Part shown: one piece after another, positions 8,316-40,840 of the stretch
Layout of the letters: each line of letters begins with the position of its first letter
How positions within the stretch are numbered: position 1 is the first letter of the stretch
From: Polyangiales bacterium
Lineage (GTDB): Bacteria; Myxococcota_A; Polyangia; Polyangiales; Ga0077539
Assembly (NCBI GenBank): GCA_044229975.1
Contig: JBGARZ010000009.1
Span: 347,947 to 411,946, forward strand
DNA: 64,000 nucleotides
Reading direction: 5' to 3'
The notes under the pieces: model-generated
What the model saw: the letters and a program-made list of their open reading frames with translations, nothing else
What the model was told of the DNA's origin: nothing
Databases searched by the model: none
Position numbers and translations under genes: made by a program

Positions 8316-8403
8316 TCGCCCCCCCCGGCTCCCTCTCTCCCAACGCCACCACGCGACCGCGCCCCGGAACCCTTCAGTGTGGTTCGCGGGGCGCTCGGCG
8401 TTT

Positions 8404-21016: not shown

Positions 21017-21613
21017 ATGAAGACAGCCACCATGGCGCTCGGAGGGGCGCTCGCGATGATCCAGGGGTGCGCGACGGTGTTGCCGGAGCCGCTGCGGCTG
21101 CCGCCGCGGAGCGCGCCCATCGAGCACCGCATCGCGGCCTACCGGGGTCATGCCGCGATGCCGCACGTCACGTTCAGCGGGTGGGCGATGCGCCTCGGCG
21201 ACGAGGAGCTGGCGCCGCTCGGTGAGGTGCGGCCGTACCTCGCCAACTCGCCCGGGGCCGAGGAGCAGATGCACGCGCGGGACAACCAGATGGCCATCGG
21301 CTGGACCCTCTTCGGCGTCGGCCTGGCGTCGATGCTGAGCGCCGTCGCGGTGGTCCCCGCCTACTCCGATCGGGGCGGCTCGGTCAGCGGCGAGGTGACG
21401 CTCCCCCTCACGCTGCTCCTCGTCGGCGCCGGGCTCGCCGTCCCCGCGGCCTTCGTGATGAACGCCGCGCAGCGTCGCGTTCCGCCCGCCGCCGAAGCCT
21501 ACAACCGCTGGCTCTGGAACGAGCTCGACCTCCCGCGCGTCGCCCCCGACGGCCGCGTCGTCGGCCCCACGCCACACCCCGCGCTGTCGCCCTCGCCGTG
21601 GGCATTGCCGTAG
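21017..21613 (+). CDS. lipoprotein of unknown function
   Basis: MKTATMALGGALAMIQGCAT lipobox; ATG 1 nt after the GH92 stop, so likely co-transcribed. Confidence 0.5.
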   Translation: MKTATMALGGALAMIQGCATVLPEPLRLPPRSAPIEHRIAAYRGHAAMPHVTFSGWAMRLGDEELAPLGEVRPYLANSPGAEEQMHARDNQMAIGWTLFGVGLASMLSAVAVVPAYSDRGGSVSGEVTLPLTLLLVGAGLAVPAAFVMNAAQRRVPPAAEAYNRWLWNELDLPRVAPDGRVVGPTPHPALSPSPWALP

Positions 21614-23555: not shown

Positions 23556-24992
23556 GTGACCAGCAACGGAGGGCCCGCCGCCACCAACACCATGGAAGAC
23601 ACGTCCGACACCTTCGATCTCCTCGGTCGGACCTTCGCCGAGAAGTACAAGGTCGAGCGCGTCGTCGCCAAAGGGGGGTTCGGGGTCGTCTACCAGGCGC
23701 GCCACGTCGAGCTCGACACACCCGTCGCGCTCAAGGTGCTGCTGGTGCCGGAGCGCTTCCGGGCGGAGCTGAGGGAAGAGTTTCTGGAGATGTTCAAGCG
23801 CGAGGCGCGCACCATCGCGGCGCTCGCGCACCCGGCCATCGTGCGCGTGCTCGACTATGGCACCGCGCGCTTCGAGTCGGGCGAGGCGCCGTGGATGACC
23901 CTCGAATGGCTCGACGGCCGCACCCTCGAAGCCGACCTCGGCGCGCGCCCCGCCCACGCCGGTCGCTCGCCCGTCGAGACGCTCGCGCTCCTGCGTCCCG
24001 CCTTCGACGCCCTCTCCGTCGCCCACGCGGCGGGCATCGCGCATCGCGACATCAAGCCCGCCAACATGATGATCGTGCGCGCGCGCCGCGGTGAGCCGGG
24101 CCTGCGCGTGCTCGACTTCGGCATCGCGAAGGTCATGGAGGCCGACGAAGAAGCGGGCAGCGGGCAGACCGCCACGCGCACCGAGCTCTCGTCGTACTCG
24201 CTCCACTACGCCGCGCCCGAGCAGGTGAGCCACGCGCGCACCGGACCGTGGACCGACGTGCACGCCCTCGCGCTCATCGCCGTCGAGCTGCTCACGGGCC
24301 GACGCGCCTACCGCTCCACCGACCCCGTCGCCGTCTACGCCGACGTGCTCGACCGCGAGCGCCCCACCCCGAAGCGCGTCGGGGGCGACGTGGGGCCGTG
24401 GGAGGACGTTCTGGCGCGGGCGCTCGCGCTGCGGCCGATGGAGCGCCACGCCGACGCCGACACTCTGCTCGCCGCCCTCGAAGCCGACGTCGATCGAGCC
24501 GAAGTCGCCTGGCAGGCCGGCCACGCTGGCGAGGCTCCCACCGCGGAGACGCGGCCCGCCCCCGTCGCCGTCGCCGCCCCGAAGGTGGTGCCCCCCGACA
24601 CGCTCGCAGGCGCCAGCGCCGTGAGCCGCCAGCCGACGACGCAGCCCCGCCGCCGCGGGCTCGTCCCCCTCGCCGTGGGCCTCGCGCTCGTCGCCGCCGT
24701 CGGCGTGCGGACGCTGATGCGACCCGCCGTCACCGCCGCGACGAGCCCGGGTCACGTCCGACCCGCGCCGATCGTGCGCGCGGAGCCCGTCGTCACCACG
24801 CCGCCGGTCGTCCCCGCCGTGGTCGCGCCCGTGGTCGCGCCCGTGGTCGCGCCGACGATCGCTGCGGTCGTTGCCCCGGTCGCTCCGTCCGTCACGCGGC
24901 GCGGGCGCCCCGTTCGAGCGCGCCCCGTCCCTGTCGCCGCTCCTGTCGCGAGCCCGACACCCGCCCCGACCCCCACCATCGTGATCGAGTAG
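23556..24992 (+). CDS. serine/threonine protein kinase (Hanks type) with Pro/Val-rich tail
   Basis: GGFGVVYQARH...ALKVL, HRDIKPANMM, DFGIAK...APE kinase subdomains; alternative ATG at 23592 (MEDTSD). Confidence 0.85.
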   Translation: MTSNGGPAATNTMEDTSDTFDLLGRTFAEKYKVERVVAKGGFGVVYQARHVELDTPVALKVLLVPERFRAELREEFLEMFKREARTIAALAHPAIVRVLDYGTARFESGEAPWMTLEWLDGRTLEADLGARPAHAGRSPVETLALLRPAFDALSVAHAAGIAHRDIKPANMMIVRARRGEPGLRVLDFGIAKVMEADEEAGSGQTATRTELSSYSLHYAAPEQVSHARTGPWTDVHALALIAVELLTGRRAYRSTDPVAVYADVLDRERPTPKRVGGDVGPWEDVLARALALRPMERHADADTLLAALEADVDRAEVAWQAGHAGEAPTAETRPAPVAVAAPKVVPPDTLAGASAVSRQPTTQPRRRGLVPLAVGLALVAAVGVRTLMRPAVTAATSPGHVRPAPIVRAEPVVTTPPVVPAVVAPVVAPVVAPTIAAVVAPVAPSVTRRGRPVRARPVPVAAPVASPTPAPTPTIVIE

Positions 24993-25011
24993 GCGGAGCA
25001 TCGACCCGACC

Positions 25012-26019
25012 ATGACCCGACGGATCGTTCCCGCTTCACTGCTCGTCACGCTCGCGCTCGCGAGCGGCGTCGCGTCGGCCCAGGACGGCCCCACCGAGGT
25101 CGCGCGGCGCGAGCTCATCGCCCAGGCCGAGGCGGCCGCGACGGCAGGCGATCACGCGCGGGCGGCGCAGCTCGGCGAGCGGGCGGCGCAGCTCCGCGTC
25201 ACGCCCACCATCCAGTACTTCCTCGCGCGCGAACACCTCGCGCTCGAACACCCCGTCGAGGCCCTCGGATACAGCGGGGCCTGCGCGCGCGCCGCCGAGG
25301 CCGACACCACACTTCGCAACCGCGACGGCGTGCTCGCGGCGTGTCGCGCCATCGTGACGACGACCGAGGCCCAGGTGGGACGGGTGACGGTCCACGTCCC
25401 GTCCGATGCGCCGGCGGGGCTCACGGTGCGCCTGCGCGGCGCGGCGTTTCCGTCGACGCTCTTCGACGTGGCGTACCCCGTGGCGCCGGGCACCGTGGTG
25501 CTCGAAGCGAGCGCGCCGGGTCACCTGCCGCTGCGCCGCGAGGCGACCGTCGCCGCGGGTCACACGGAGACGCTCGACGTGCGCCTCGAAGCGGAGCCCA
25601 CGGTGGTGGCGCCGACGCCTCCGGTCGCGCCCGCGGTGGTGGCGGTGGTCGTCCCGCCGCGCGTCGCCGCACCGATGCCGCGCAGCTACAGCATCGGGCC
25701 GTGGATGGTTGTTGGTGGTGGGGCGGCGGCGTTCATCCTGAGCGGGGTGTTCTATGGGTTGGCGTCGAGCGAGCTGAGCGCCCGCGATGGGCTGTGTCCC
25801 GCCCCTTGTGTGGACCCAGGCCCCGAGGCGCGCGCACACGACGCCAGCTACGGCGAACACATCGAGCGAACCAACGTCGCGCTCGGCGTCGGCGCGGCGC
25901 TCGTCGTGGGCGGTGGGGTGTGGCTGCTCGTCGACCGGCTGAGCCACCGCGCGTCGACGGAGACGACGGTGCGCGCAGTCGTGACGCCGAACTCCATCGG
26001 GCTCGCCGGGCGGTTCTAG
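25012..26019 (+). CDS. secreted/membrane hypothetical protein
   Basis: Signal peptide MTRRIVPASLLVTLALASGVASA and C-terminal TM segments; sits next to the Ser/Thr kinase. Confidence 0.5.
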   Translation: MTRRIVPASLLVTLALASGVASAQDGPTEVARRELIAQAEAAATAGDHARAAQLGERAAQLRVTPTIQYFLAREHLALEHPVEALGYSGACARAAEADTTLRNRDGVLAACRAIVTTTEAQVGRVTVHVPSDAPAGLTVRLRGAAFPSTLFDVAYPVAPGTVVLEASAPGHLPLRREATVAAGHTETLDVRLEAEPTVVAPTPPVAPAVVAVVVPPRVAAPMPRSYSIGPWMVVGGGAAAFILSGVFYGLASSELSARDGLCPAPCVDPGPEARAHDASYGEHIERTNVALGVGAALVVGGGVWLLVDRLSHRASTETTVRAVVTPNSIGLAGRF

Positions 26020-26993
26020 ACGACGGTGACCACGGCCCCGGGCGCGAGGCAGAAGCGCAGCCCGCCGCCCCGTCGATCGAAGAGCGCGGTCGCGTCGATG
26101 CCCTCCTCGGCGAGCGCCTGGCGCAATCGATACAGCAGCGAGTTGAGCTCGACGCGGCCGTTTCTCTCGCCGGGCCAGACGCGCGCGCAGAGCAGGTCTT
26201 CGGGGATGAGCTCGCCCGGCGCGAAGGGCGACGGCGGTCGCAGCAGGCACGCCACCAGATCACAGCGCCGCTCGGACAGCGCCGTCGTGTGCACCTGTCC
26301 ACCAATCTCCACCGTGAGCTGACCGCCGCGCGGCATGAACTCCAGCACCACCCGCACGGCCGCCTTCGCCGCGCCCGGTGATGGCGCGGTCACGCCCGCC
26401 ACCTCCACCTGGCGCGCCCGCACGGTGAGCAGCTCGTCGCGGTACCTGATGCGCGACTCGTCCGCGAGCTCGACGCGCTCGCCCGCCGCGAGGACGCGCT
26501 CGCACCACACGTCCGACCGCAGCGCCGCGAGCACCGGGGCCTCGGCGCCCACGTCGATCGCGAACACCGACGGCTCCCAGCCCACGAAGATGAGGTCGTC
26601 GCGCGCGTCGCCGCCGACCCGGTACGTCGGCCCCGTGAGGTAGTGCAGCAGCCCCGTCTCGCGCTCCAGGAACCACGCCACCTTCACCTCCGCGGGCTCC
26701 GCGGCGGTCTCGTCTTCGCCGACGCGGAAGGTCCACCCGCAGACGTCGACGACGTCGCCCGCGCGCAGCGCCGTCAGCGATCGCCGCTCGGCGCCGTTGA
26801 TGAGCACGGGCTCGCGGCCCAGCGGCAGCATCTCGGCGCCCGCCTCGCTCAGCCGCACGACGGCGTGGTACCGGCTGACCTGCGGTCCTTCGAGGACGAT
26901 GGTGCAGTCGGGGCTGCGACCGATCAGCACCTTCGTGGCGCCGATGGCCACGCGCCCCTGCGCCGTGTCGAGCCAGTAGATCTTGGTGGGCAA
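26016..26993 (-). CDS. FHA-domain protein with C-terminal winged-helix (OmpR/BTAD-like) DNA-binding region
   Basis: FHA motif GRSPDCTIVLEGPQVSRYHAVV; C-terminal LIPEDLLCARVWPGERNGRVELNSLLYRLRQAL resembles trans_reg_C. Confidence 0.7.
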   Translation of the reverse strand: MPTKIYWLDTAQGRVAIGATKVLIGRSPDCTIVLEGPQVSRYHAVVRLSEAGAEMLPLGREPVLINGAERRSLTALRAGDVVDVCGWTFRVGEDETAAEPAEVKVAWFLERETGLLHYLTGPTYRVGGDARDDLIFVGWEPSVFAIDVGAEAPVLAALRSDVWCERVLAAGERVELADESRIRYRDELLTVRARQVEVAGVTAPSPGAAKAAVRVVLEFMPRGGQLTVEIGGQVHTTALSERRCDLVACLLRPPSPFAPGELIPEDLLCARVWPGERNGRVELNSLLYRLRQALAEEGIDATALFDRRGGGLRFCLAPGAVVTVV

Positions 26994-27085: not shown

Positions 27086-30000
27086 TCAGGGAAGGGCGCG
27101 AGCGCAGCGGAAGCCGACGTACGGGTTGTCGTTCATCGCGGGCGGGGCCGTGAAGCGCCCCACCGAGAGCAGGCCGTTGGGGTCGCTGTCGCCCCACGAC
27201 CCGCCGCGGACGATGCGATCGGCGGTCAGGCTCAGGTTGCTGAGCGGGTTCAGGTTGGACGACCACGACGGGCGGTAGGACTGGAAGGTGTCCGCCATCC
27301 ACTCGTAGACGTTGCCTGCCATGTCGTTCAGCCCGCCGCTCACGCCGGTGGGGTAGCTGCCCACGCGGCGGGTGCCGCCGCCGTCGGTGCCGCCGCAGCC
27401 GCGCCAGAGGGCGCGGTCGCAGCTGGTGCTCGGAGGGGTGTTGCCCCACGGGAAGAGGCGCCCGGAGACGAGCCCCTCGCTGGGAATCGTGCGACCGCGG
27501 GCCGCGAACTCCCACTCGGCCTCGGTGGGAAGGCGGCCGCCGTCCCACACGCAGAACTCCTGCGCCGCCCAGTAGCTGACGGCGTTCATCGGGTGCGCGT
27601 CGCGCGTCGTCGACGCGGGCGACCAGTTGAACGAGCCCGACTGCGCCCCCGGCGCGACCGCCGCCGCGCCCCAGGCGATGGTGTTCGCCCCGGGGTAGGC
27701 GATGGGCGCCGAGCGCACGGTCGCGAGGTCGCGCGAGCGCACCGACCACCATGCGTTGAAGCGCGCCACGGTGACCTCATAGGTGTCCATCGCGAAGCTG
27801 CCCACCGCGATGCTCGGCTGCTCCGGGGTGCCGCCGTAGAACGACGAGGTCGCGTTCGACCCCACCGTGAAGGTGTCGCCGCCGACGATGGCGACGAGGC
27901 CGCAGCCGGGGGTTCCCGCGACCGCGCAGCTCCGCTGGCCGCAGACGCCTGCGACGCACGCCTCGATGGCGCCGCACACGCGCCCGCAGGCGCCGCAGTT
28001 GTTGCGGTCGGTCTGCGCGTTGACGCAGGTCCCCGCGCAGCTCAACTGGTCGGGCGCGCAGAGGGTGGGACCCTCGGCGTAGAGCGCGGCGATCGCGCAG
28101 GGGCTGAGGGCCGTGTTGTAGAGCCGGGCCTCGTCGACGTCGCCGGCGAAGAAGGGGTCGTTGCCCGCCGCCGTGCCCACGCCGTTGACGTGCACCGCGT
28201 GGCGAACGCCCAGGAGGATCTGCGCCACGTTGGCCCCGTAGGCCTGCATCGTGCCCTGGGTGTAGGCCGCGTAGAGCGCGCCGTTGCGGTAGATCTTGAT
28301 GCTGTTGTCCGCCGCGTAGGCGATCGCGATCATCACGCTCGTGGGGTACGCGACGGTCTCCAGGGCGCCGCCGTTGTTGCCCGGGCTGCGCAGGGCGTAG
28401 TAGCTGGCGCTCTGCCACTGGCGCGGGGTGCCCTCGCCGAAGACGATGGCGTCGAAGAGGTCGTCGCCCGCGATCGGGGTGTCGATCGCGAGCACGCCGC
28501 CCGAGCGCTGCGTGAGGTTCTGCGGGCTGACCCAGGCCACGAGGGTCCGCACGGTCACCGTCTGAGGCATCGCGGCGGTACGGGCGTACTGCGTGATGCC
28601 GTCGAGGCCCAGCCGACCTCCGACCACCGACGCGCCGTTGTAGAGCGTCAGGTGGAGGTTGCCGATCGAGTCGTTCCCGGTGCCGTCGTTGAAGGTCCAG
28701 CGGTGGATCGGCGCGGGAGCCGTCGTCGGCGCGCACCCGCAGGCGCCCGCCGTACAAGCCTGCCCGGCCGCGCACGCCTGGCCGCAGGCGCCGCAGTGGG
28801 CGGTGTTGGCGGTGACGTTGACCTCGCAGCCGTTGGCTGCGGTACCGTCGCAGTTGGCGTAGCCCGCGGCGCACCCGCAGGTGCGGCTACCGGGCGTGTT
28901 GGTGCAGACCTCGTTGGCGGCGCAGTTGCCGTTGTTGGTGGCGCACTCGTTGACGTCGACGCAGGCGCCGCCCGCGAGGGTGTAGCCGGTGTTGCACGCC
29001 GCCGGGGCGCAGGCGCCCGCGAAGCAGGCGGCCGTCCCGTTGGCGACGACGCAGGTGTTGCCGCAGCCGCCGCAGTTGGCGGCGCTGCTCCCGAGGTTGA
29101 CCTCGCAGCCGTCGGTGGAGCTCGCGTTGCAGTTGGCGTAGCCCGGCGCGCAGGTAGCGAGGGCGCAGGCGCCCGCGGTGCACGAGCCGGTGCCGTTGGT
29201 GTACGAGCACGCCACGCCGCAGCCGCCGCAGTGGGCGGCGTTGGAGGCGAGCGTCACTTCGCAGCCATTGCTGCCGTCGTTGTCGCAGTCAGCGAGTCCG
29301 CCGGCGCAGACCGCCGTGGTGCATGAGCCCGCCTGGCAGGTGCGTCCCTGGGTGCAGACCACGCCGCAGCCGCCGCAGTTGGCGCTGTCGGCGTTGGCGT
29401 CGACCTCGCAGCCGTTGGTCGTGTTGCCGTCGCAGTCGCGCTGCCCCGGGGCGCACGCGTAGCCGCACACGCCCGCCGAGCAGGTGGCAGTCGCGGACGG
29501 AGCGTCGTTGCAGACGACCCCGCACGCGCCGCAGTTGCCGGTCTCGGTGGCGGTGGAGACCTCGCAGCCGTTGCCCGCGAGGTGATCGCAGTCGGCGAAG
29601 TTCGCGTCGCACGAGCCGACGCCACACGCACCGTTGCTGCACGCCGCCGTGCCGTTGATGGTGGTGCAGGCAGTCCCGCACGCGCCGCAGTTCGAGGCGT
29701 CGGTGGTGATGGCCACCTCGCAGCCGTTGGCCGCGTTGCCGTCGCAGTTGGCGTAGCCCGCAGCGCACGCGCCCATCACGCACGCACCCGCCGCGCAGGC
29801 GGCGCCGGCGTTCGCGAAGGAGCAGGCGTTCTGGCAGCTACCGCAGTGGGCGGCGCTGGAGCCGAGGGAGACCTCGCAGCCGTTGCTCTCGTCGGCGTCG
29901 CAGTTGGCGAGGCCCGCGGTGCAGGTCGTGGCCGAGCACGCCCCGCTCACGCAGGTGCGACCGTCGGTGCAGGCGTTGCCGCAGACGCCGCAGTTGGCGC

Positions 30001-32488
30001 CGTCCGTGGTGATCGCCACCTCGCAGCCGTTGGCGGCGTTGCCGTCGCAGTCGGCGTGCGTCGCGTCGCAGGTGTACCCGCAGGTCGCGCCGCCGCAGGT
30101 CGCGGTGGCGTTGGCGGGCACGTCGCAGGCGGTCGCGCAGGCGCCGCAGTGGGCGAGGTCGGAGGTCAGCGAGACCTCGCAGCCGTTGGCCGGGTTGCCG
30201 TCGCAGTTCGCCCAGCCGGCGTCACACGCGCCGAGCGCGCAGACGCTGGCACCGCACACGCCCGTGGCATGCGCGTAGGTGCAGCGGGTGCCGCAGCCGC
30301 CGCAGTTGCTCGCGTCGTTGCCGAGCGCGATCTCGCAGCCGTTGGCCTGGGTGCCATCGCAGTCGGCATAGCCCATGTCGCAGACCGTGAAGCCGCACGA
30401 CCCTTCGGTGCACACCGGAGCGGCGTTGGCGAAGGAGCACGCGTTGCCGCACGCCCCGCAGTGGCCGCTGTCGGTCGCGGGCGTGGTCTCGCAGCCGTCG
30501 GAGAGGAGCCCGTTGCAGTCGGCGTGACCGGCCGAGCACACCGCCGTCGAGCAGGCGCCCGACTGGCAGGTGGTGGCGTTGGTGCAGACCGTTCCGCAGG
30601 CGCCGCAGTGCGAGCCGCTGGTGGTGGTGTCGACCTCGCAGCCGTTGCTCGCCACGCCGTCGCAGTTGGCGTAGCCCGCTTCGCAGGTGATGCCGCAGGT
30701 GCTCGCGCCGCAGGTCGGCGTCGAGTGCGGGCCCGAGGCGCAGGTCACGCCGCAGGCGCCGCACGAGGTGACCGACGAGAGGTCGGTCTCGCAGCCGGTG
30801 GCCGCGTCGCCGTCGCAGTTGGCGAAGCCGGTCGAGCAGGCCCCGACCGCGCACGCGCCCGCCGCGCACACCGCGGTGGCGTTGGAGAGCGAGCAGGCGC
30901 TGCCGCACGCACCGCAGTGGGCGGCGCTGGTGTCGAGCGCGACCTCGCAGCCATTGGCCGCGATGCCGTCGCAGTTGGCGTAGCCCTCGGCGCAGCTCCC
31001 GATGGCGCACGCGCCCGCCGCGCACACCGGCTCGGCGTTGGCGAGGGAGCAGGTGTTGCCGCACGCGCCGCAGTGGGCGGTGTCCGTGGCAGGAACGGTC
31101 TCGCAGCCGTTGGCCGCGCTGCCGTCGCAGTTGGCGAAGCCGGGGTTGCAGGTTCCGACCGCGCACGCTCCCGCCGCGCAGGCCGCGGTAGCGTTGGCGA
31201 CCGCGCACGCGTGCTGGCAGGCCCCGCAGTGCGCGGGGTCGCTGGCGAGCGAGACCTCGCAGCCGTCCGCGGCGGAGGTATTGCAGTTGGCCTGCTGGGC
31301 CGGGCACACGATGGAAGAGCAGGCGCCGCTCACGCAGGTGCTGGTGCTCCCCGCGCTGGAGGTGCAGACATTGCCCGGGGTGCCGCAGTTGGCGTTGGTG
31401 GTGACGTCGAGCTCGCAGCCGTCGGCGCGGTTGCCGTTGGCGTCGGCCCAGCCCGCCGCGCAGGTGAGCGCGCAGGTGCCGGTGCCGCAGGTCGGGGTCG
31501 AGTGCGCGCCAGAGGTGCACGAGACACCGCAGGCGCCGCAGTTGGTGAGGGTGCGGGTGGAGGTCTCACAGCCGTCCCTGGATCGCCCGTTGCAGTCGCC
31601 GTAGCCCGTCGCGCAGGTGGAGCGGTCGCAGCTGCCGGCGACACAACCCGCGTTGGCATGACCGATGGTGCAGGGCGTCCCGTCGGGCGCGACGGCGAAC
31701 GAGCACCGGCCCTCGCGGGGATCGCAGATGCCCGCGAGGCGACACTGGTCGTCGGGCTCCCGACAGGTGACACCGACGCACTCGCAGACGTCACCTACCC
31801 CGTTGCGGTTGGTGTCCCGCTGGTCGGCGTTGGCCACCGTCGGGCAGTTGTCCTGCCAGTCGAAGCGGCCGTCGCCGTCCTGGTCCACCGCGGGGCGGTC
31901 GATGCGAAACTTGATCTCGAGCGTGTCCCCGTTGAGCAGCGGCGCGAAGTTGACGGTGTCGACGGTGCGAAACTCGCGGGTCGTGCCGACCACGTCGACG
32001 TCCGCGAAGCCGAGCTCGCGGGTGCCGCCGTCGGCCGCCGGGACCATCACGCGCACCCGGTATCGGGCGTCGGTCGAGAGCCGCGCGCGGCGGGTGTCCC
32101 ACTCGACGAGGAAGTACCCGTCGGGGTCGTCGGCGCGGTCGTTGGGTCGGCGCGTGGTGATCGCCTCGACCCGTTGGTCCGACTTCCCGCGCGTGGTGAA
32201 GGTCGCCAGGGTGCGCAGCGTGGTGCCCGCGGCGTTGATCTCGTCGATGCGCACCGTGGGCTCGACCGAGGGGACGAAGTCGCCGAACTGCGCCGGCCGC
32301 GGGACCATCGGCGGCAGGAAGAGGAAGCCCGCCGTCCCGCCGTTGTGGAGCTGGTCGGAGATGACCGCCTGCGCGGCCCGGTGGGTGCCGTCGCCGCCGG
32401 GCGTGTCGGTGGAACTACACCCGACGGCGATCATCAGCGGCACACAGAGTGCTGCCAACGTGGGGCGTCTGGGTCTTCGATTGGGCAT
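27086..32488 (-). CDS. giant multidomain lipoprotein: TSP3 repeats, about 18 Cys-rich 40-aa repeats, cbEGF-like, LamG-like and C-terminal FGE-sulfatase (SUMF1-like) domain
   Basis: Start MPNRRPRRPTLAALCVPLMIAVGCSS with GGGAGAA RBS (ORF-track start 32506 is 6 codons upstream). TSP3 DQDGDGRFDWQDNCPTVANADQRDTNRNGVGD. Repeats of the form CGACG..C....C..GAC..G.C..G.ANCDG...NGCEV. CVDVNECATNNGNC (cbEGF-like). C-terminus contains RGGSW...GFRCAR (FGE-sulfatase fold). Confidence 0.8.
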   Translation of the reverse strand: MPNRRPRRPTLAALCVPLMIAVGCSSTDTPGGDGTHRAAQAVISDQLHNGGTAGFLFLPPMVPRPAQFGDFVPSVEPTVRIDEINAAGTTLRTLATFTTRGKSDQRVEAITTRRPNDRADDPDGYFLVEWDTRRARLSTDARYRVRVMVPAADGGTRELGFADVDVVGTTREFRTVDTVNFAPLLNGDTLEIKFRIDRPAVDQDGDGRFDWQDNCPTVANADQRDTNRNGVGDVCECVGVTCREPDDQCRLAGICDPREGRCSFAVAPDGTPCTIGHANAGCVAGSCDRSTCATGYGDCNGRSRDGCETSTRTLTNCGACGVSCTSGAHSTPTCGTGTCALTCAAGWADANGNRADGCELDVTTNANCGTPGNVCTSSAGSTSTCVSGACSSIVCPAQQANCNTSAADGCEVSLASDPAHCGACQHACAVANATAACAAGACAVGTCNPGFANCDGSAANGCETVPATDTAHCGACGNTCSLANAEPVCAAGACAIGSCAEGYANCDGIAANGCEVALDTSAAHCGACGSACSLSNATAVCAAGACAVGACSTGFANCDGDAATGCETDLSSVTSCGACGVTCASGPHSTPTCGASTCGITCEAGYANCDGVASNGCEVDTTTSGSHCGACGTVCTNATTCQSGACSTAVCSAGHADCNGLLSDGCETTPATDSGHCGACGNACSFANAAPVCTEGSCGFTVCDMGYADCDGTQANGCEIALGNDASNCGGCGTRCTYAHATGVCGASVCALGACDAGWANCDGNPANGCEVSLTSDLAHCGACATACDVPANATATCGGATCGYTCDATHADCDGNAANGCEVAITTDGANCGVCGNACTDGRTCVSGACSATTCTAGLANCDADESNGCEVSLGSSAAHCGSCQNACSFANAGAACAAGACVMGACAAGYANCDGNAANGCEVAITTDASNCGACGTACTTINGTAACSNGACGVGSCDANFADCDHLAGNGCEVSTATETGNCGACGVVCNDAPSATATCSAGVCGYACAPGQRDCDGNTTNGCEVDANADSANCGGCGVVCTQGRTCQAGSCTTAVCAGGLADCDNDGSNGCEVTLASNAAHCGGCGVACSYTNGTGSCTAGACALATCAPGYANCNASSTDGCEVNLGSSAANCGGCGNTCVVANGTAACFAGACAPAACNTGYTLAGGACVDVNECATNNGNCAANEVCTNTPGSRTCGCAAGYANCDGTAANGCEVNVTANTAHCGACGQACAAGQACTAGACGCAPTTAPAPIHRWTFNDGTGNDSIGNLHLTLYNGASVVGGRLGLDGITQYARTAAMPQTVTVRTLVAWVSPQNLTQRSGGVLAIDTPIAGDDLFDAIVFGEGTPRQWQSASYYALRSPGNNGGALETVAYPTSVMIAIAYAADNSIKIYRNGALYAAYTQGTMQAYGANVAQILLGVRHAVHVNGVGTAAGNDPFFAGDVDEARLYNTALSPCAIAALYAEGPTLCAPDQLSCAGTCVNAQTDRNNCGACGRVCGAIEACVAGVCGQRSCAVAGTPGCGLVAIVGGDTFTVGSNATSSFYGGTPEQPSIAVGSFAMDTYEVTVARFNAWWSVRSRDLATVRSAPIAYPGANTIAWGAAAVAPGAQSGSFNWSPASTTRDAHPMNAVSYWAAQEFCVWDGGRLPTEAEWEFAARGRTIPSEGLVSGRLFPWGNTPPSTSCDRALWRGCGGTDGGGTRRVGSYPTGVSGGLNDMAGNVYEWMADTFQSYRPSWSSNLNPLSNLSLTADRIVRGGSWGDSDPNGLLSVGRFTAPPAMNDNPYVGFRCARALP
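28726..31756. repeat. tandem ~120-nt coding repeats (Cys-rich 40-aa units) inside the giant gene
   Basis: Recurrent DNA units such as cgcagccgttggccgcg.tgccgtcgcagttggcgtagcc every ~120 nt; protein repeat ...ANCDG.A.NGCEV... about 18 times. Confidence 0.6.
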
Positions 32489-32666
32489 TGAGGTTCTCCC
32501 TGGCATTGGCCGACCGGGAGCTCACGACTTGTGGGCGTTTGGGCAGCCAACGGGACTCATCGCACGGCGACCATGCGCATCCCGATAGCAGCGTGGTTGC
32601 AGCGGCTCTTGGCCGCGGCGGAAGCGGCGAGGGAATGAGATCCCCCGCCGCTGCTTCAGGTGGGGT

Positions 32667-35600
32667 TCAGGGGCAGGTGAGCGCGGCGCAGGTCGACGGC
32701 GGGTCGGCCGGGCACGGGCCCTCGACCAGTTGAATCTGGTCGAAGTCCGCCGAGCTCCCGACCGGGCCCTGGAAGAGCTGGAACCGCAGGTACACATGCG
32801 TCCAGTCCGCGGGCATGACCATCTGCTTGGGGTACCAGCGCCACGTGTTGTCCGAGACCATCGGGGTGATGGTGCCGCCCAGGTAGTCGCTGTCGCCGCA
32901 ACCGCCGAGGCCCCAGAACTGCTCGTAGATCGACGCCTGACCCGCCGCGTTGGAGCGGTGGAAGCCGACGTAGGGGACGGCGCCGGGCGTTCCGCGCACC
33001 CACGACGAGAGGCAGTAGGTGCGCCCGCCGACCACCGGGGTCGGGACGTTGGTGAACACCCGACCGCCGCCCTGCGGAAGAAGCGCCGTCTCGTGGAAGT
33101 ACGTCCCCGCGCACTGCGGGCTCGCCGACGCGAGGGTCAGCGGACGCGCGTCGATGGAGTGCCAGGCCCCGGCGCCCGACTCCCAGTTCTCGGTGAAGGT
33201 GACGCTCGTGCACACCGGGCAGGCCGCGCCGGAGCAGCGCGTCGGCGGCGTGCAGATGGTGTTGACGCAGGCGCCCGCCGAGCACGCCTGATGGTAGGCG
33301 CACACGTTGCCGCACGCGCCGCAGTTGCTCGTGGTGGTGACGCTGGTGCACACGCCGCCGCAGCTCGCGAAGCCCGCGTTGCAGGCGCAGGTGCGGCTGC
33401 CCGGCGTGTTGGTGCAGGTCGAGTTCGTCCCGCAGCCGCCGTTGCTGGTGAGGCACTCGTTGACGTCGGCGCAGGTCACGCCGTTGCCCGTGTAGCCCGC
33501 GTTGCACGCGCAGGTGCGGCTGCCCGGGGTGTTGGTGCAGGTCGCGTTGGCGCTGCACCCGCCGTTGCCGGTCGCGCACTCGTTGACGTCGACGCAGGCG
33601 CCGCCCGCGAGGGCGTAGCCGGTGTTGCACGCCGCCGGGGCGCAGGCGCCCGCGAAGCAGGCGGCCGTCCCGTTGGCGACGACGCAGGCGTTGCCGCAGC
33701 CGCCGCAGTGCGCGGCCGTGCTCCCGAGGTCGACCTCGCAGCCGTCCGCGGAGCCCGCGTTGCAGTTGGCGTAACCCGCGTTGCAGCTCGCGAGCGCGCA
33801 GGAGCCCGCGGTGCACGACCCGGCGCCGTTGGCGTAGTTGCAGGCGACGCCGCAGCCGCCGCAGTGGGCGGCGTTGGCGTCGAGCGTCACCTCGCAGCCG
33901 TTGGCCGCAGCGTGATCGCAGTCGGCGAGGCCCGCGGTGCAGACCGCCGTGGTGCACGAGCCCGCCTGGCAGGTGCGGCCCTGGGTGCAGACCACCCCGC
34001 AGCCGCCGCAGTTGGCGCCGTCGGCGTTGGCGTCGACCTCGCAGCCGTTGGCCGCGCTGCCGTCGCAGTCGCGCTGCCCCGGGGCGCACGCGTAGCCGCA
34101 CACGCCCGCCGAGCAGGTGGCCGTCGCGGACGGAGCGTCGTTGCAGACGACCCCGCACGCGCCGCAGTTGCCGGTCTCGGTGGCGGTGGAGACCTCGCAG
34201 CCGTTGCCCGCGAGGTGATCGCAGGCAGCCGTTGCCCGCGAGGTGATCGCAGTCGGCGAAGTTCGCGTCGCACGAGCCGACGCCACACGCACCGTTGCTG
34301 CACGCCGCCGTGCCGTTGATGGTGGTGCAGGCAGTCCCGCACGCGCCGCAGTTGGAGGCGTCGGTGGTGATGGCCACCTCGCAGCCGTTGGCCGCGTTGC
34401 CGTCGCAGTTGGCGTAGCCCGCAGCGCACGCGCCCATCACGCACGCACCCGCCGCGCAGGCGGCGCCGGCGTTCGCAAAGGAGCAGGCGTTCTGGCAGGT
34501 TCCGCAGTGGGTGGCGTCGGCGTCGAGCGCGACCTCGCAGCCGTTGCTCTCGTCGGCGTCGCAGTTGGCGAGGCCCGCGGTGCAGGTCGTCGCCGAGCAG
34601 GCCCCGCTCGCGCAGGTGCGACCCTGGGTGCAGGCGTTGCCGCACGCGCCGCAGTTCGCGCCGTCGGTGGTGGTCGCGACCTCGCAGCCGTTGCTCGCGA
34701 GACCGTCGCAGTCGGCGTGGGTGGCGTCGCAGGTGTAGCCGCACGATCCGCCGCCGCAGGTCGCGGTGGCGTTGAACGGGACGTCGCACGCCGTCGCGCA
34801 GGCGCCGCAGTGGGCGAGGTCGGAGGTCAGCGAGACCTCGCAGCCGTCGGCCGGGTTGCCGTTGCAGTCGGCCCAGCCCGCATCACACGCGCCGAGCGCG
34901 CAGGCGCTGGCGCCGCACACGCCCGTCGCGTGGGCGTAGGTGCAGCGCGTGCCGCAGCCGCCGCAGTTGTCGGCGTCGTTGCCGAGCGCGATCTCGCAGC
35001 CGTTGGCGCGAACGCCGTCGCAGTCGGCGTACCCGACGTCGCACACCACGAAGCCGCAGACGCCCGCCGTGCACTGGGGCGCGGCGTTGGCGAAGGAGCA
35101 CGCGTTGCCGCACGCCCCGCAGTGGCCGCTGTCGCTGTCCGGCGTGGTCTCGCAGCCGTCGGCCGCGAGGCCGTTGCAGTCGGCGTGACCGGCCGCGCAC
35201 ACCGCCGTCGAGCAGGCGCCCGACTGGCAGGTGGTCGCGTTGGTGCAGACCGTCCCGCACGCGCCGCAGTTCGATGCGCTCGTGGTGGTGTCGACCTCAC
35301 AGCCGTTGGCCGCGTTGCCGTCGCAGTTGCTCCAGCCCGCTTCGCAGGTGAGGCCGCAGGCGCCCGCGCCGCAGGTCGGCGTCGAGTGGGGCCCCGACGC
35401 GCAGGTCACGCCGCAGCCGCCGCAGGAGGTGACCGCCGAGAGGTCGGTCTCGCAGCCGCTCGACGCGTTGCAGTCCGCGAAGCCCGGCGCGCAGGCGCCG
35501 ATGACGCACGCGCCCGCCGCGCAGACCGCCGAGGCGTGCGAGAGCGAGCAGACGTTGCCGCACGCGCCGCAGTGGGACGCGCTGCTGTCGAGCGCGACCT

Positions 35601-37146
35601 CGCAGCCGTTGGCCGCGCTGCCGTCGCAGTTGGCGTAGCCGGGCGCGCAGCTCCCGATGGCGCAAGCGCCCGCCGCGCAGACCGGCGAGGCGTTGGCAAA
35701 GGAGCACACGTTGCCGCAGGCGCCGCAGTGGGCGACGTCGGTGGCGGGCGTGGTCTCGCAGCCGTTGGAGGGATTGCCGTCGCAGTTGGCGTGGCCGGGA
35801 GCGCACGACCCGAGAGCGCACGCACCGGCCGCGCAGACCGCGCTGGCCTGAGCGTAGGAGCAGGCGTTGCCGCAGGCGCCGCAGTGGGCGACGTTGGAGG
35901 CGGGGTCGACCTCGCAGCCGTTGGCCTCGTTGCCGTCGCAGTTGGCGAGGCCGCCGGTGCAGACCGTGGCCGAGCACGCGCCCGCGATGCAGGTGCGACC
36001 CGCGGTGCAGGCGTTGCCTGCGGTTCCGCAGTTGGCGTTGGTGGTCACGTCGAGCTCACAGCCGTCGGCGCGGTTGCCGTTGGCGTTGGCCCAGCCGGGC
36101 GCGCAGGTGAGGGCGCAGGTACCGGTCGCGCAGGTGGGCGTCGAGTGGGCGCCCGCGGTGCACGCGACGTTGCAGCCGCCGCAGTGGGTGAGCGTGTTGG
36201 TGGCGACTTCGCAGCCGTCGGCCGCCGAGCCGTTGCAGTTGGCGCGGCCTGCGTCGCAGGTGGCGACGCCGCATGTGCCGTTGGTGCAGACCGCCGTCGC
36301 GTTGGCGAGCGAGCAGGCCGACCCGTTGGGCGCGTTGGGGTTGGAGCACAGGCCGGTGGCGGGGCTGCACACGCCCGCGGTGTGACAGGTCCCGCTGGTG
36401 GTGCAGGTGACGCCGAGGCACTCACAGGCGTCGCCCTGGCCGTCGTGGTTGGTGTCGAGCTGGTTGGCGTTGGCCACCGTGGGGCAGTTGTCCTGCCAGT
36501 CGAGGTCGCCGTCGCCGTCGCGGTCCACCGCGGGTCGGTCGATGCGGAACTTGATGCGCAGCACGCGCCCGTTGATGAGCGGGGAGAAGTTCACCGTGTC
36601 GACGCTGCGGAATTCCTGCTGGTTGCGGACGACGTCCACGTCCGCGAAGCCGAGCTCGCGGGTGCCGCCGCCGACCGCCGGGACGAGCACGCGCACGCGG
36701 TAGCGGGCGGTGGGCGAGAGGCACTCGTTGTTGGTCTTCCAGCGCGCGAGGAAGTAGCCCTCCGGGTCGGTGTCGCCGTCGTCGTCGTCCCAGTCGCAGG
36801 GGGAGCCCTGGTAGTGGATGCGGAGGCGCTCGTTGCCGGGGCCGCTGTTGGCGGTGAAGGTCGCGAGCGTGCGGATGGTGACACCCGCAGCGTTGACCTC
36901 GTCGATGCGAACGGTGGGGTTCACCGTCGGCAGGAAATCGCCGAACTGCGCCGGTCGCGGGACCATCGGCGGCAGGAAGAGGAAGCCCGACGTCCCACCG
37001 TTGTGGAGCTGGTCGGAGATGACCGCCTGCGCGGCGCGATGGGTCCCGTCGCCGCCGGGTGTGTCGGTGGAACTACACCCGACGGCGAGGAGGAGCGGCA
37101 CACAGATGGCCGCGAGCGTGGGTCGCCTGAGTCGTCGACTGGACAT
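32667..37146 (-). pseudogene. paralog of the giant lipoprotein, disrupted by a +28-nt frameshift (or assembly artifact); C-terminal cbEGF x2 and galactose-binding-like domain instead of an FGE domain
   Basis: N-terminal frame (ORF 32656-37224, start MSSRRLRRPTLAAICVPLLLAVGCSS at 37146 with GGGAG RBS) runs into Arg-rich out-of-frame sequence after about 34225. The correct C-terminal frame is ORF 32667-34292. The shift coincides with a 28-nt tandem duplication absent from the paralog. Confidence 0.7.
34197..34252. repeat. 28-bp perfect tandem duplication (gcagccgttgcccgcgaggtgatcgcag x2) causing a frameshift
   Basis: Directly visible. The paralogous site 29564-29591 in the intact gene has a single copy; flanks are identical. 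Confidence 0.9.
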
Positions 37147-37273
37147 GGAGTCTCCCTCGTGTGGTCGCGGAGAGACCCACGGAGTGTGAGCGCCCCAGTG
37201 ACCAACGGGAGCCATGCCAGACAACCGTCCAGAGACCGATGGCAGGTCGGTGGCGACGCGCGCCGCAGCGCGT

Positions 37274-37753
37274 TCAGACGCCCGTCGGGATTGTCAGCCC
37301 GTGCTCCGTCGCAAACCGCCGCGCCCCATCGGCGTCCTTGCGCAGCTTCCCCGCCCACAGCTCGCGCTCGGGGCACACCGGCACGCCGTCGATCCAGCGC
37401 GCGTCACGCACCAGCGCGCCGACGTCGAAGTCCGCCTCCTCGAAGGTCGCGTCCACCTGCAACCCGTCGCACACCGCGCGCACGTACCACCGCCCCTCGA
37501 GCGAGCGCTCCGTCCACCGCGCGTCCCAGGGCTCACCCCAGCAGGTCACCGCGCCTCCCCGGCTCTCGGCCCACGCCACGAAGCCCCGCAGCGCGCCCTC
37601 CGCCAGCAGCACGTCGCTGTCCGTCAACGCGTACGCCTCGCGCAGTCGCGGGTGCGCCAGCAGCAGCCCCGCGCTCCCGATGGTGACGAAGCCGACGCCC
37701 GCCTCCGCGAGCGATCGCAGCAGCGCGAAGTGGCGCTCGTTGTCCGCGCTCAC
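37274..37753 (-). CDS. nucleotidyltransferase-fold-like small protein (GS...DxD motif)
   Basis: GTG start at 37753 overlapping the upstream stop (GTGA). 159 aa with IGSAGLLLAHPRLREAYALTDSDVLL resembling the pol-beta-type NTase / ANT(2'')-like motif; the N-terminal part of ORF 37274-38383 is shadow. Confidence 0.35.
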   Translation of the reverse strand: MSADNERHFALLRSLAEAGVGFVTIGSAGLLLAHPRLREAYALTDSDVLLAEGALRGFVAWAESRGGAVTCWGEPWDARWTERSLEGRWYVRAVCDGLQVDATFEEADFDVGALVRDARWIDGVPVCPERELWAGKLRKDADGARRFATEHGLTIPTGV

Positions 37754-38829
37754 GGCTCGAAATAGTTGCCCACGACCTTCGCGTTGGGAACCCAGTCCCC
37801 ACACAGGTCGCCGCTCGAATGGAACACCAGCTTCTGCAACACCCCGCCCCTCACCTCGTCGTGGTGCGCCACGTAGCTCGACCCCTCCAGCACCACCTCC
37901 ATCACACCCCGCCGATAGACCTCGTTGTAGTAGTAGTAACCCGACGTCACGCCCACGAGGCTCCACCCCTCGCGCGCCGTCCCCTCCTCGCTCAACACCG
38001 CGTCCATCAGCGCGCGGGCCGACACCCGATGGCGGGCGATCCAGCGCGTCTCGCGGTTGTCCCGGTAGATGTCCCCGAGCTCGCTCAGCGCGCGAAACAC
38101 CACGCGCCGCACGCCCAGCGCCTCGGCGCCGTCGAGGTACGCCTCGACCTCCTCCACCGTCGACACGCCCTGCCCGTTGAGAACGCACACCAGCATCACC
38201 TCGACGCCCGCCGCGAGCACCCGCCGCACCGTCTCGTCGAAGGCCGCTCCACCGCGAATCGCCACGTCGCGATCGAAGCGCATCACCCGCTCGTTGATGC
38301 GCTCGTCGAGGTGGCAGCGCGACAGCTCCACCCGGTCGAAGCGCGCCCGCGCGAGGTCGGCCGCGAGCCCCGCATCGGCGCACAGCCCGCTGCCGTTGGT
38401 GTACAGCACCCTCGCCGGAAACAGCGCCCCGTGCTCACCCACCAGCGTGAGCAATCGACGCAGCCACGAGGGGTCGGAGGTCGCTTCGAGGCCGCTCAGG
38501 CTCAGGCCCATCTCGAAGCCAGCGAGCTCGCGCCACGCGCGGTCGAGCCCGGCGAAGTAGCGGTCGTGGTCGTCGATGGTGCGCTTCGCGGTGAGGCGCT
38601 CGGCGTCGAGGCGCATGAGCTCCTCGGAGCAGAACGAGCAGTGCGCGTTGCACGGCGTCGGGTTGGCGTAGGGCGTAAACGTCAGCCCCGGCCGCAGCAG
38701 AAAGGGCCTTCCCCGCAGCACACGCTCGACGGGCTCCTTCGGCTCGAAGGTGCGCCAGCGGCCGTCGCGAAACTCCCCCGGGCTCGTCACCGTCGCGGCG
38801 TGGCGAAACTGGTTGGGCCGGAAGCTCAT
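37750..38829 (-). CDS. viperin-like radical SAM enzyme
   Basis: 359 aa from MSFRPNQF. CNAHCSFC (viperin CNYKCGFC). SLSGLEAT (GGE motif). VLYTNGSGL (viperin SIVSNGSLI). LSRCHLDERIN (ISCDSFDEEVN). LVCVLNG (KINSVIN). VRRVVFRA (PVRWKVFQ). Motif spacing matches human viperin to within a few residues, with +10 aa between the CxxxCxxC and GGE motifs. No SPASM Cys cluster. ATG overlaps the upstream stop (ATGA). Confidence 0.6.
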   Translation of the reverse strand: MSFRPNQFRHAATVTSPGEFRDGRWRTFEPKEPVERVLRGRPFLLRPGLTFTPYANPTPCNAHCSFCSEELMRLDAERLTAKRTIDDHDRYFAGLDRAWRELAGFEMGLSLSGLEATSDPSWLRRLLTLVGEHGALFPARVLYTNGSGLCADAGLAADLARARFDRVELSRCHLDERINERVMRFDRDVAIRGGAAFDETVRRVLAAGVEVMLVCVLNGQGVSTVEEVEAYLDGAEALGVRRVVFRALSELGDIYRDNRETRWIARHRVSARALMDAVLSEEGTAREGWSLVGVTSGYYYYNEVYRRGVMEVVLEGSSYVAHHDEVRGGVLQKLVFHSSGDLCGDWVPNAKVVGNYFEP

Positions 38830-40826: not shown

Positions 40827-40840
40827 CACGAGAGGTCTTC

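Follow-up and report, generated by a model that had tools for sequence, protein, structure and literature searches.

Two paralogous genes for giant, predicted cysteine-rich lipoproteins with different C-terminal heads in a Polyangiales bacterium

Very large envelope proteins rich in cysteine are numerous in myxobacteria, and TraA alone among them has a known role. TraA of M. xanthus (MXAN_6895) is a receptor for outer-membrane exchange and kin recognition that holds a binding domain on a stalk of cysteine-rich repeats at the cell surface (PMC3325183). Its PA14 head, which is polymorphic, stands at the N-terminus, its repeats are of the TIGR04201 type, and a MYXO-CTERM anchor closes the chain at the C-terminus. 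Another cysteine-rich family is catalogued under the sequence model NF041328 (MXAN_6577-like cysteine-rich protein), which has no described function; a full-text literature search for MXAN_6577 found nothing.

A different set of described proteins shares the FGE-sulfatase fold (PF03781). Catalytic formylglycine-generating enzymes (SUMF1 and the FGEs of S. coelicolor, M. tuberculosis and T. curvata) are recognized by an active-site pair of cysteines that lie five residues apart, directly after a GGS[YFW] motif; these are the ligands of Cu(I) (PMC5324649), and an enzyme that loses the active-site cysteines is inactive (PMC2459300). The same fold family contains noncatalytic proteins (CalU17, PorK/GldK, PvdO, SUMF2/pFGE, and TvpA, which is a DGR target), none of which is fused to a cysteine-rich stalk with a LamG domain. 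Here we describe two adjacent genes, A and B, found in a window of 64 kb (the whole stretch of DNA that was analysed) from a Polyangiales bacterium, whose products add an N-terminal beta-sandwich and TSP3 base and specific C-terminal heads to repeats of the NF041328 family.

Coding status, anchor and stalk of the paralogous genes

Two adjacent open reading frames on the minus strand (27086-32506 and 32656-37224) have homologous N-terminal domains, in agreement with an initial annotation that described tandem, same-strand giant paralogues. Gene B (27086..32488, minus) is an intact giant lipoprotein gene of 1800 aa; a second possible start lies at ATG 32506, and translation most likely begins at ATG 32488, since this start agrees with the conserved leader and with P0001, a database protein of 1800 aa that is 100% identical to the gene B product. 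Its paralogue, gene A (32667..37146, minus), had been taken for a single open frame and is instead broken by a perfect 28-nt tandem duplication (2.0 copies, 34197..34252); with one copy removed it encodes 1483 aa. The GC content at third codon positions in the coding phase is 0.93-0.99 in both genes, and in gene A this signal switches phase at the duplication, which is missing in gene B and in L001, a 99.5%-identical assembly in which gene A is intact (1486 aa). Gene A here is either inactivated by the duplication or mis-assembled at that site. The surrounding tract (34059..34497, minus) is 99-100% identical in DNA to positions 29426-29836 of gene B and is flanked by clusters of SNPs relative to L001; it is read as a gene-conversion tract through which the two paralogues exchange sequence.

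Both products are predicted to be lipoproteins on the basis of a signal peptide and a lipobox (PROSITE PS51257-type pattern, searched as a regular expression), which reads LAVG/C in A and IAVG/C in B; the signal peptide of B (32417..32488, minus) leaves a mature N-terminus of CSSTDTP. The pattern is also present in 20 of 28 relatives, those that fail it being mostly truncated gene calls. The sorting positions +2 and +7 carry Ser and Pro, respectively; in M. xanthus, Lys at +2 is associated with inner-membrane lipoproteins and Ala at +7 with matrix lipoproteins (PMC3222651). The anchor is followed by a conserved beta-sandwich domain (31892..32365 in B, minus) and thrombospondin type-3 calcium-binding repeats (31772..31891, minus); in A, the signal peptide with lipobox, beta-sandwich and TSP3 repeat together occupy 36427..37145 (minus). 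Over the N-terminal domain and TSP3 region the paralogues are about 73% identical, as expected for the shared domain claimed previously, and the claimed TSP3 repeats exceed the TSP_3 (PF02412) cut-off when the N-terminal segment of B is scanned in isolation (33.9 bits against 25, two stretches), whereas whole-protein scans stay below threshold (22.9 bits for B and 18.9 for A).

The stalks consist of 16-17 repeats of 49-52 aa with eight cysteines each, giving four potential disulfides per unit, and not of some 18 six-cysteine repeats of 40 aa as had been proposed. In B the stalk runs from 28727 to 31771 (minus), with about 17 units ending in GCE[VTIL], a period of 156 nt, and one calcium-binding EGF module inside it (28841-28957, minus; EGF_CA 29.9 bits). 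The repeats had been assigned to TIGR02232, yet that model gave no match at E<=0.01 on the whole proteins nor at E<=10 on three repeat units; the model that fits is NF041328 (curated cut-off 100 bits), with 221.1 bits over 13 stretches in B, and 151.8 bits for residues 1-961 and 65.6 bits for the C-terminal part of A. More than 1100 homologues, mostly from Myxococcota MAGs, carry this type of repeat, and the stalks of relatives contain 9-18 GCE-terminated units by motif count. Given also an FGE-type tip without catalytic cysteines and a break in one of the genes, A and B are uncharacterised members of a catalogued family and not a new enzyme system.

Different heads on a common plan

At their C-termini the two proteins diverge, as noted before, into an FGE-fold domain in B and a galactose-binding-like domain in A. 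The head of B comprises, after its cbEGF module, a LamG or concanavalin-like domain (28088..28597, minus; residues 1304-1473), detected by Laminin_G_3 (PF13385) at 33.9 bits against a cut-off of 27.6; such a domain had been ascribed to both genes, which holds for B and fails for A. A Stig1-like cysteine-rich linker (27938..28063, minus; 27 bits against 24.1) leads to the terminal domain (27098..27895, minus), which has the FGE-sulfatase, C-type-lectin-like fold without the catalytic cysteine pair. The fold had been recognized in the initial annotation, which named a PF03781 profile check, and that check gives 126.9 bits against a gathering threshold of 23.3 (E 1.4e-36) over residues 1538-1803 and profile positions 6-255 of 255. 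RGGSW and GFRC motifs, which B shares with true FGEs, are both present, and the protein ends in ...FRCARALP.

The head of A consists of two calcium-binding EGF modules of the DVNEC type (33345..33590, minus; period 123 nt; EGF_3 68 bits) followed by a CBM-type beta-jelly-roll domain (32670..33206, minus) that ends in ...CAALTCP, again much as had been described. EGF_CA (PF07645, cut-off 27 bits) scores 39.9 bits over the two A modules and also passes for the single module of B, so that cbEGF-like modules do occur in both genes. The jelly roll is superposable on solved CBMs and makes up a family of its own, with 117 cluster representatives at E<=0.001. In contrast to CBM4/9, CBM16 and CBM22, it is not attached to a glycoside hydrolase, and it falls below the PF02018 (CBM4/9) cut-off (15.1 bits, E 0.031, against 25.9); eight of 28 aligned relatives match PF02018 at E<=0.01, the best at 2.1e-5. 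The earlier domain reading was thus largely right with respect to paralogous cysteine-rich-repeat lipoproteins, TSP3, cbEGF modules and divergent C-termini, while its functional suggestions find no support.

About 30 of the 120 best homologues have the same N-terminal domain, TSP3 region and stalk, and end in LamG, Kelch, RCC1, beta-helix, EGF or FGE heads. Between orthologues the heads are 92-95% identical, against 69-74% for the N-terminal domains, and we infer that the heads may be conserved ligand-binding modules. A and B are very long, disulfide-rich lipoproteins with a common anchor and stalk and with different lectin-like tips.

Enzyme, kin receptor, operon product or artefact

That B is a genuine envelope-tethered FGE, maturing a sulfatase or converting cysteines of the cysteine-rich repeats to formylglycine, is barely credible in spite of the strong PF03781 match, of the human and bacterial FGE structures that match its head at E values of about 1e-15 to 1e-11, and of an orthologue, P0002, that one source names 'formylglycine-generating enzyme required for sulfatase activity'. 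At this site the head of B reads RGGSWGDSDPNGLLSVGRF..., with no Cys before GFRC and an Asp aligned to position 336 of human FGE; P0002, P0010 and L006 likewise lack a Cys between the RGGSW and GFRC motifs. The head was rejected as a catalytic FGE for want of a Cys at the catalytic pair; judged from its residues, it cannot make formylglycine by the known mechanism, the copper-binding pair having been lost or never present. The whole head resembles CalU17 (E 1.7e-15) and SUMF2 (2e-15), its C-terminal third is closer to CalU17, PorK/GldK and PvdO (5e-8 to 8e-6) than to FGEs (2e-3), and an NCBIfam scan of B returned GldK, SenA and EgtB only far below threshold. Among the called genes no sulfatase is found within about 10 kb, and none of those between 17 kb and 46 kb of the window belongs to a sulfatase family, which bears out the absence reported earlier and is expected rather than puzzling for a head without the catalytic pair. 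The likeness to TvpA also has its limit, as the last 315 nt of B have no DGR template repeat in the window beyond chance matches of <=42 nt. The logic of a head on a cysteine-rich stalk is the one seen in TraA, and A and B might on that ground be taken for polymorphic kin-recognition receptors of the same kind, a reading that we consider very unlikely. Pfam and NCBIfam scans of both proteins found no TIGR04201 repeats (no match at E<=10), PA14 head or MYXO-CTERM tag; the polarity is reversed, with an N-terminal lipid anchor, NF041328-type repeats and the head at the C-terminus; and the heads are the best conserved part of the proteins, which is the opposite of a polymorphic specificity domain.

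An operon with a double TauD and weak caspase and radical-SAM matches lies upstream on the same strand, where an oxygenase/caspase-type operon had been placed. One account, which develops a speculative link made earlier, takes A and B for its last genes and its substrates: all would be transcribed in one long unit, and the dioxygenase would hydroxylate Asn or Asp in their cbEGF modules. Beta-hydroxylases acting on Asp or Asn in peptide biosynthesis belong to the TauD family, although the initial annotation had called the TauD and AspH families unrelated; all genes share one strand, the gaps measure 127 nt and 160-178 nt, and that strand shows no terminator-like site; and in the sister genome a third, A-type paralogue (L005) again has this operon in front of it. 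Since L005 and L001 are parts of one genome and 91-97% identical, however, they represent a segmental duplication and not independent evidence. The TauD2-rSAM-p159 trio (p159 being a 159-aa protein) occurs in eight metagenome loci at 60-94% identity, with no giant gene, stalk or FHA gene beside it in flanks of up to about 10 kb, and orthologues of B (L002, L006, L007) and of A (L003, L004, L013) stand in unrelated contexts without the operon. Each giant gene moreover has its own conserved 5' region, a putative promoter or leader (37147..37263 for A and 32491..32610 for B, both minus), and this block of about 120 nt stays conserved ahead of A, B and the genes in L002, L003, L005 and L006, regardless of the upstream neighbour. 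As to hydroxylation, neither protein matches the Asx site PS00010 of PROSITE, C-x-[DN]-x(4)-[FY]-x-C-x-C, because the three EGF modules read C-x-N-x4-R-x-C-x-C, with Arg at the aromatic position. Both ideas are left unsupported by the recurrence of the operon without a giant gene, and we regard this account as quite unlikely. A much closer call is whether the 28-nt duplication is an artefact of assembly or polishing at a paralogous repeat, both genes being intact in the organism: we hold this to be nearly, if not quite, an even matter. The duplication sits in a tract of about 400 nt that is 99-100% identical between A and B, where reads are not assignable to one copy; GC3 keeps a coding pattern before and after the break; the duplication is missing from the 99.5%-identical assembly, though that assembly has odd +7/+2 indels of its own 20-50 nt away; and its third paralogue contains a perfect 85-nt duplication. 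Base-calling errors, on the other hand, do not typically take the form of perfect 28-nt and 85-nt tandem duplications, and among the perfect duplications of 12 nt or more in the 64 kb, the one in gene A alone is out of frame.

A kinase/p335/FHA cassette and the proposed surface role

Downstream of gene B and on the same strand, as previously noted, is a gene for a 325-aa FHA-domain protein (26016..26993, minus). It is accompanied by genes for p335, a membrane protein with a signal peptide that belongs to an unnamed family (25012..26019, plus), and for a Ser/Thr kinase that has a single TM segment and a short tail of Pro, Ala and Val (23556..24992, plus). Homologues of the FHA gene, with or without p335 and the kinase, adjoin family genes in seven further loci (L002, L007, L021, L022, L025, L026 and L027) in varied orientations, and a search that started from the FHA family recovered the trio in L077/L078, beside a secreted TSP3-array protein, and in L079, beside LamG fragments. 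This recurring synteny supports a probable link between the giant genes and the FHA gene, although within the DNA available the cassette is found in only about one third of Myxococcota family loci. Kinases are abundant in these genomes, which counts against the link.

The arrangement recalls pairs of the PknH-EmbR type, which likewise place genes for a membrane Ser/Thr kinase and an FHA protein next to those for envelope proteins, and the FHA domain itself is similar to EmbR (E 9.5e-7). The cassette differs in its third, unnamed membrane protein and in that a DNA-binding domain of the FHA protein is only a candidate: its C-terminus, a possible winged helix, reaches E 0.13 with Trans_reg_C (Pfam; 12.8 bits against 26.2) and E 0.16 in the recognition-helix region with a PhoB sequence (hhalign), and a PDB profile search with the protein matched the FHA part alone.

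The reading that we favour, with moderate confidence, is that A and B, as paralogues, belong to a large family of envelope lipoproteins in Myxococcota whose members combine an anchor, a stalk and a head, and that they form outer-membrane stalks which display their heads and are probably partnered by the cassette. From the lipid anchor, the beta-sandwich domain and TSP3 repeats would form the membrane-proximal end, the 16-17 repeats a cysteine-rich rod, and the paralogue-specific head the tip (cbEGF, LamG and the FGE-fold, C-type-lectin-like domain in B; two cbEGF modules and the CBM-type jelly roll in A). The heads would be displayed from the outer membrane as ligand binders, a function that we infer; each gene would be expressed from its own conserved 5' region and not as the tail of the upstream operon; and the cassette may be a functional partner that either regulates the giant genes or receives their signal.

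A bolder and unlikely extension joins giant lipoprotein, kinase, p335 and FHA protein into one surface-sensing device: the lectin-type head on its disulfide stalk would be the ligand sensor, acting in trans for a kinase that itself has no sensor domain, while p335 would couple them at the membrane and the FHA protein would give the output. The frame-breaking duplications (28 nt here and 85 nt in L005) would, on this view, switch genes on and off reversibly and so vary the heads displayed. Unless sensing or switching proves true, the locus changes no major open question. The analysis shows to be wrong a name, "formylglycine-generating enzyme", that databases repeatedly give to heads without the catalytic cysteines, sets the giant genes apart from the dioxygenase/radical-SAM operon next to them, and offers the kinase/p335/FHA cassette as a testable partner of the giant lipoproteins. 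For the myxobacterial envelope, the locus may serve as the parts list of a second and larger class beside TraA: a lipid anchor at the N-terminus, a base that is conserved, a stalk whose length varies, and lectin-like heads that are interchangeable.

Paralogous lipoproteins on a common cysteine-rich stalk

The window has a G+C content of about 72%, and two large open reading frames on its reverse strand, 27086-32506 (1806 codons) and 32656-37224, have a third-position G+C (GC3) of 0.93-0.99 and are therefore regarded as coding. Gene B, the downstream one, most likely starts at the second ATG of its frame (27086-32488, 1800 aa): a ribosome-binding site sits before the ATG at 32488 in the alignment of conserved leaders, and a database protein of 1800 aa (P0001) is identical to the product. 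Gene A (32667-37146) lies upstream. The initial annotation numbered as gene 1 the one that ends in a formylglycine-generating-enzyme (FGE) domain and as gene 2 the one with a galactose-binding-like end; these are gene B and gene A, respectively.

Our analysis shows that A and B are paralogous lipoprotein genes with a common scaffold of anchor, base and stalk and with different lectin-type heads. Both proteins begin with a basic, hydrophobic signal that ends in a lipobox (LAVG↓C in A, IAVG↓C in B), a pattern found in 20 of 28 relatives, the failures being mostly truncated gene calls. In Myxococcus xanthus, Lys at +2 marks inner-membrane lipoproteins and Ala at +7 those of the matrix (PMC3222651); the mature ends of A and B, CSSTDTP, have neither, which leaves the outer membrane as the default, inferred destination. 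The conserved N-terminal beta-sandwich (N-domain) is followed by a TSP3 calcium-binding repeat (33.9 bits, cut-off 25) and by a stalk of 16-17 units with a period of 156 nt (TRF), each of 49-52 aa with eight Cys and ending GCE[VTIL], instead of the 40-aa six-Cys units first described. NCBIfam model NF041328 (MXAN_6577-like) matches the stalk at 221 bits in B and 152 bits in A (cut-off 100); a literature search on MXAN_6577 returned nothing. TIGR02232, the repeat family put forward earlier as a check, gave no match even at E<=10, and the TraA-type repeat TIGR04201 was rejected on the same result.

The head of gene B consists of one cbEGF module (29.9 bits), a Laminin_G_3 domain (33.9 bits), a Stig1-like Cys linker and an FGE-sulfatase domain (126.9 bits, E 1.4e-36). 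That of gene A has two cbEGF modules (39.9 bits) and a 170-aa C-terminal domain that matches CBM_4_9 weakly (E 0.031); since an exhaustive search gathered 117 cluster representatives of this domain, with 8 of 28 aligned members matching CBM_4_9, the galactose-binding-like assignment holds at the level of the fold. A LamG domain had been ascribed to both genes and is found in B only.

A search with the full-length protein returned more than 1100 matches, nearly all from uncultured Myxococcota. The N-domain and TSP3 are common to about 30 of the best 120, and the C-terminal ends of the relatives vary (LamG, Kelch, RCC1, beta-helix, EGF, or LamG with FGE). A profile scan of genomes with the N-domain gave 69 loci: at most of those in Myxococcota it is followed by one TSP3 repeat and 9-18 stalk units, at a few more distant Myxococcota loci (L032-L037) by 0-3 units, and in Gemmatimonadota, Bacteroidota and others it forms, with 30-40% identity, the N-terminal part of large, almost Cys-free proteins. 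The presence of the N-domain in such proteins without TSP3 (L039-L074, from Longimicrobium, Gemmatimonadales, Salinimicrobium, Balneolaceae and Pirellulales) indicates that it is older than the Cys-rich stalk. One protein labelled as from the rotifer Adineta steineri (P0005, 2347 aa) aligns with the stalk at 41% identity, covering 54% of the query, and probably reflects bacterial contamination of the rotifer assembly or horizontal transfer.

An FGE fold without catalytic residues

The SUMF1-type reading of the gene B terminus survives as to fold and fails as to catalysis. Compared with solved structures, the domain has CalU17, SUMF2 and SUMF1 as its top matches, all near E 1e-15; over its last 96 residues, CalU17, PorK/GldK and PvdO score 5e-8 to 8e-6, whereas true FGEs score about 2e-3. 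In the alignment with human FGE, RIVRGGSWGDSD lies opposite RVKKGGSYM(S/C336)HR, which places an Asp at position 336. The stretch that separates RGGSW from the terminal GFRC is free of Cys in B, and likewise in the orthologues P0002, P0010 and L006. Loss of the active-site cysteines of FGE abolishes its activity (PMC2459300), and the Cys pair is the ligand of the Cu(I) cofactor (PMC5324649, PMC6676471). As this pair is missing, we reject a catalytic FGE, and the idea of an FGE function for gene B is demoted; no sulfatase is found among the called genes within about 10 kb, and the initial annotation had likewise remarked on none nearby. The best reading of the domain is that of a C-type-lectin-like binding module. 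A DGR-type variable protein was likewise considered, and was rejected as the window contains no template repeat of the gene B 3' end. When orthologues are compared, conservation is highest in the heads (92-95% identity, vs 69-74% for the N-domains), which favours a conserved ligand over a polymorphic recognition function.

Upstream operon and downstream cassette

Upstream of gene A on the same strand are an aldo-keto reductase gene, a gene for a 406-aa caspase-like protein (40841-42061), and a three-gene operon (37274-40829) with overlapping stop and start codons, which encodes a 667-aa double TauD dioxygenase, a 359-aa radical-SAM-like protein and a 159-aa protein (p159), the latter two without family names. 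The 406-aa protein matches the PADLOC caspase model (4.8e-10), Pfam Peptidase_C14 (E 0.0017) and, under the cut-off, NCBIfam caspase_w_EACC1 (6.8e-12); it also carries two Tudor-knot/chromo-like domains, a pairing unusual for bacteria. Identification of the 359-aa protein as a viperin was rejected, as it shows only a CX3CX2C motif and a Radical_SAM match that is weak (E 0.026), and NCBIfam gave no match. Assignment of this operon or of the downstream cassette to a known defence system was also rejected, PADLOC returning generic caspase and kinase matches only.

The initial annotation suggested that these genes and the giant genes could form one long transcription unit. The dioxygenase, radical-SAM and p159 trio recurs in eight metagenome loci (L080-L087, 60-94% identity), none of which has a giant gene, an FHA gene or a stalk in its flanks (up to about 10 kb), and the surroundings of the B orthologues (L002, L006, L007) and the A orthologues (L003, L004, L013) are different ones. 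The sole second case of operon with giant gene is L005, from the sister genome GCA_044228995.1, in which the block that begins with the aldo-keto reductase and ends with the A-type giant gene (L005 3607-14188) is present twice at 91-97% protein identity; this block, shared with the contig L001 of the same genome, is a segmental duplication, and its second copy runs to the contig end. Moreover, each giant gene is directly preceded by its own conserved block of about 120 nt on the reverse strand (37147-37263 for A, 32491-32610 for B), which recurs, irrespective of the upstream neighbour, ahead of the genes in L002, L003, L005 and L006, with weaker matches to its 5' half in L007, L010, L014 and L019. 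These observations run against a single unit, and we conclude that the upstream operon is separate from the giant genes, which would be driven by independent promoters. A proposed link between the oxygenases and hydroxylation of the cbEGF modules finds no support either: the operon is separate, and the three modules of A and B read C-x-N-x4-R-x-C-x-C, which fails the Asx-hydroxylation consensus.

In the leader, CUCCC and the GGGAG of the ribosome-binding site are predicted to pair in a hairpin; a structured RNA was rejected on energy z-scores of -1.35 and -1.74 (not significant), covariation of about zero and the lack of an Rfam match to the leader, the one sub-threshold Rfam match falling within gene B on the other strand. 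The promoter and terminator scan was uninformative: its single promoter-like match falls within gene B, and it found no terminators on the minus strand.

Downstream of B, after a gap of 92 nt and on the same strand as annotated, is the gene for a 325-aa FHA protein, on which two genes converge: p335 (335 aa, a signal peptide and predicted TM segments, no family name) and a Ser/Thr kinase (478 aa, one TM segment, a short Pro/Ala/Val tail). The three genes make up a cassette (23556-26993 in the window). Homologues of the FHA gene, usually with p335 and the kinase, adjoin N-domain genes in L002, L007, L021, L022, L025, L026 and L027, in several orientations and in at least five MAGs, and the giant proteins beside them have LamG, RCC1 or unassigned heads. 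The reciprocal search, which started from the FHA protein and its family of 70 proteins, found the trio in L077 and L078 beside a 720-aa secreted TSP3-repeat protein and in L079 beside LamG fragments. Within the available sequence, about one in three of the family's loci in Myxococcota shows the cassette, which makes the association a recurring one but not universal. For a winged-helix output domain in the FHA protein there are hints at most, the matches to Trans_reg_C (E 0.13) and, by hhalign, to PhoB (E 0.16) being insignificant; a PDB profile search recovered the FHA domain alone.

Adjoining the kinase gene is one for a 633-aa protein with a signal peptide and seven FG-GAP repeats (21499-23400, reverse strand; 165 bits), and FG-GAP is among the Pfam domains on homologues with Cys-rich stalk repeats. 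The extracytoplasmic tail of the kinase contains an in-frame perfect 12-nt tandem repeat (24817-24853, encoding VAPV VAPV VAP), present in L001 too.

Frame-breaking duplications and gene conversion

Gene A is interrupted in this sequence; of its earlier description as a single open frame paralogous to B, the paralogy stands. Translation of the long frame past ...DCDHLAGNGC gives Arg-rich nonsense, and the true continuation, EVSTATETGNCG..., is found in another frame. The frame changes because a 28-nt unit (28 being 1 mod 3), CTGCGATCACCTCGCGGGCAACGGCTGC, is present in two perfect tandem copies at 34197-34252, exactly where the GC3 phase switches; with one copy removed, gene A encodes an uninterrupted 1483-aa protein. 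No other perfect duplication of 12 nt or more within the window is out of frame. L001, which is 99.47% identical to the window over 25.4 kb, is without it, and gene A is called intact there (1486 aa), with +7 and +2 nt insertions of its own (L001 about 8284-8320, equivalent to about 34170-34195 of the window), 20-50 nt downstream of the duplication site, that produce a short out-of-frame stretch before the frame is restored. The sister genome (GCA_044228995.1) has a third paralogue, in L005 (JBGATW010000002.1), whose frame is broken by a perfect 85-nt tandem duplication (L005 10006-10175), such that two different paralogues carry the same kind of lesion.

The 28-nt duplication lies in the mid-point region of a tract of about 400 nt in which A (34059-34497) and B (29426-29836) are 99-100% identical in DNA, the rest of the stalk being 80-90% identical. 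Together with the clusters of SNPs between the window and L001 at the edges of this tract, this indicates ongoing or recent gene conversion between the two paralogues. The duplication in gene A may be an assembly artefact, it may mark a recent pseudogene, or it may act as a reversible switch.

The closest characterised analogue is TraA, with a similar logic of a head on a Cys-rich stalk; however, A and B differ from it in repeat type, in polarity, in anchor and in the behaviour of the head, and membership of A and B in the TraA family was rejected. Proteins of this kind are catalogued but uncharacterised. The results of most use are a corrected anatomy, the downgrading of both the FGE and the hydroxylation idea, the unexplained frame-breaking duplications and the recurring kinase/FHA partnership. 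A and B would be anchored in the outer membrane and hold their heads at a distance from the cell, where these would bind a conserved ligand; the kinase/p335/FHA cassette is probably their functional partner.
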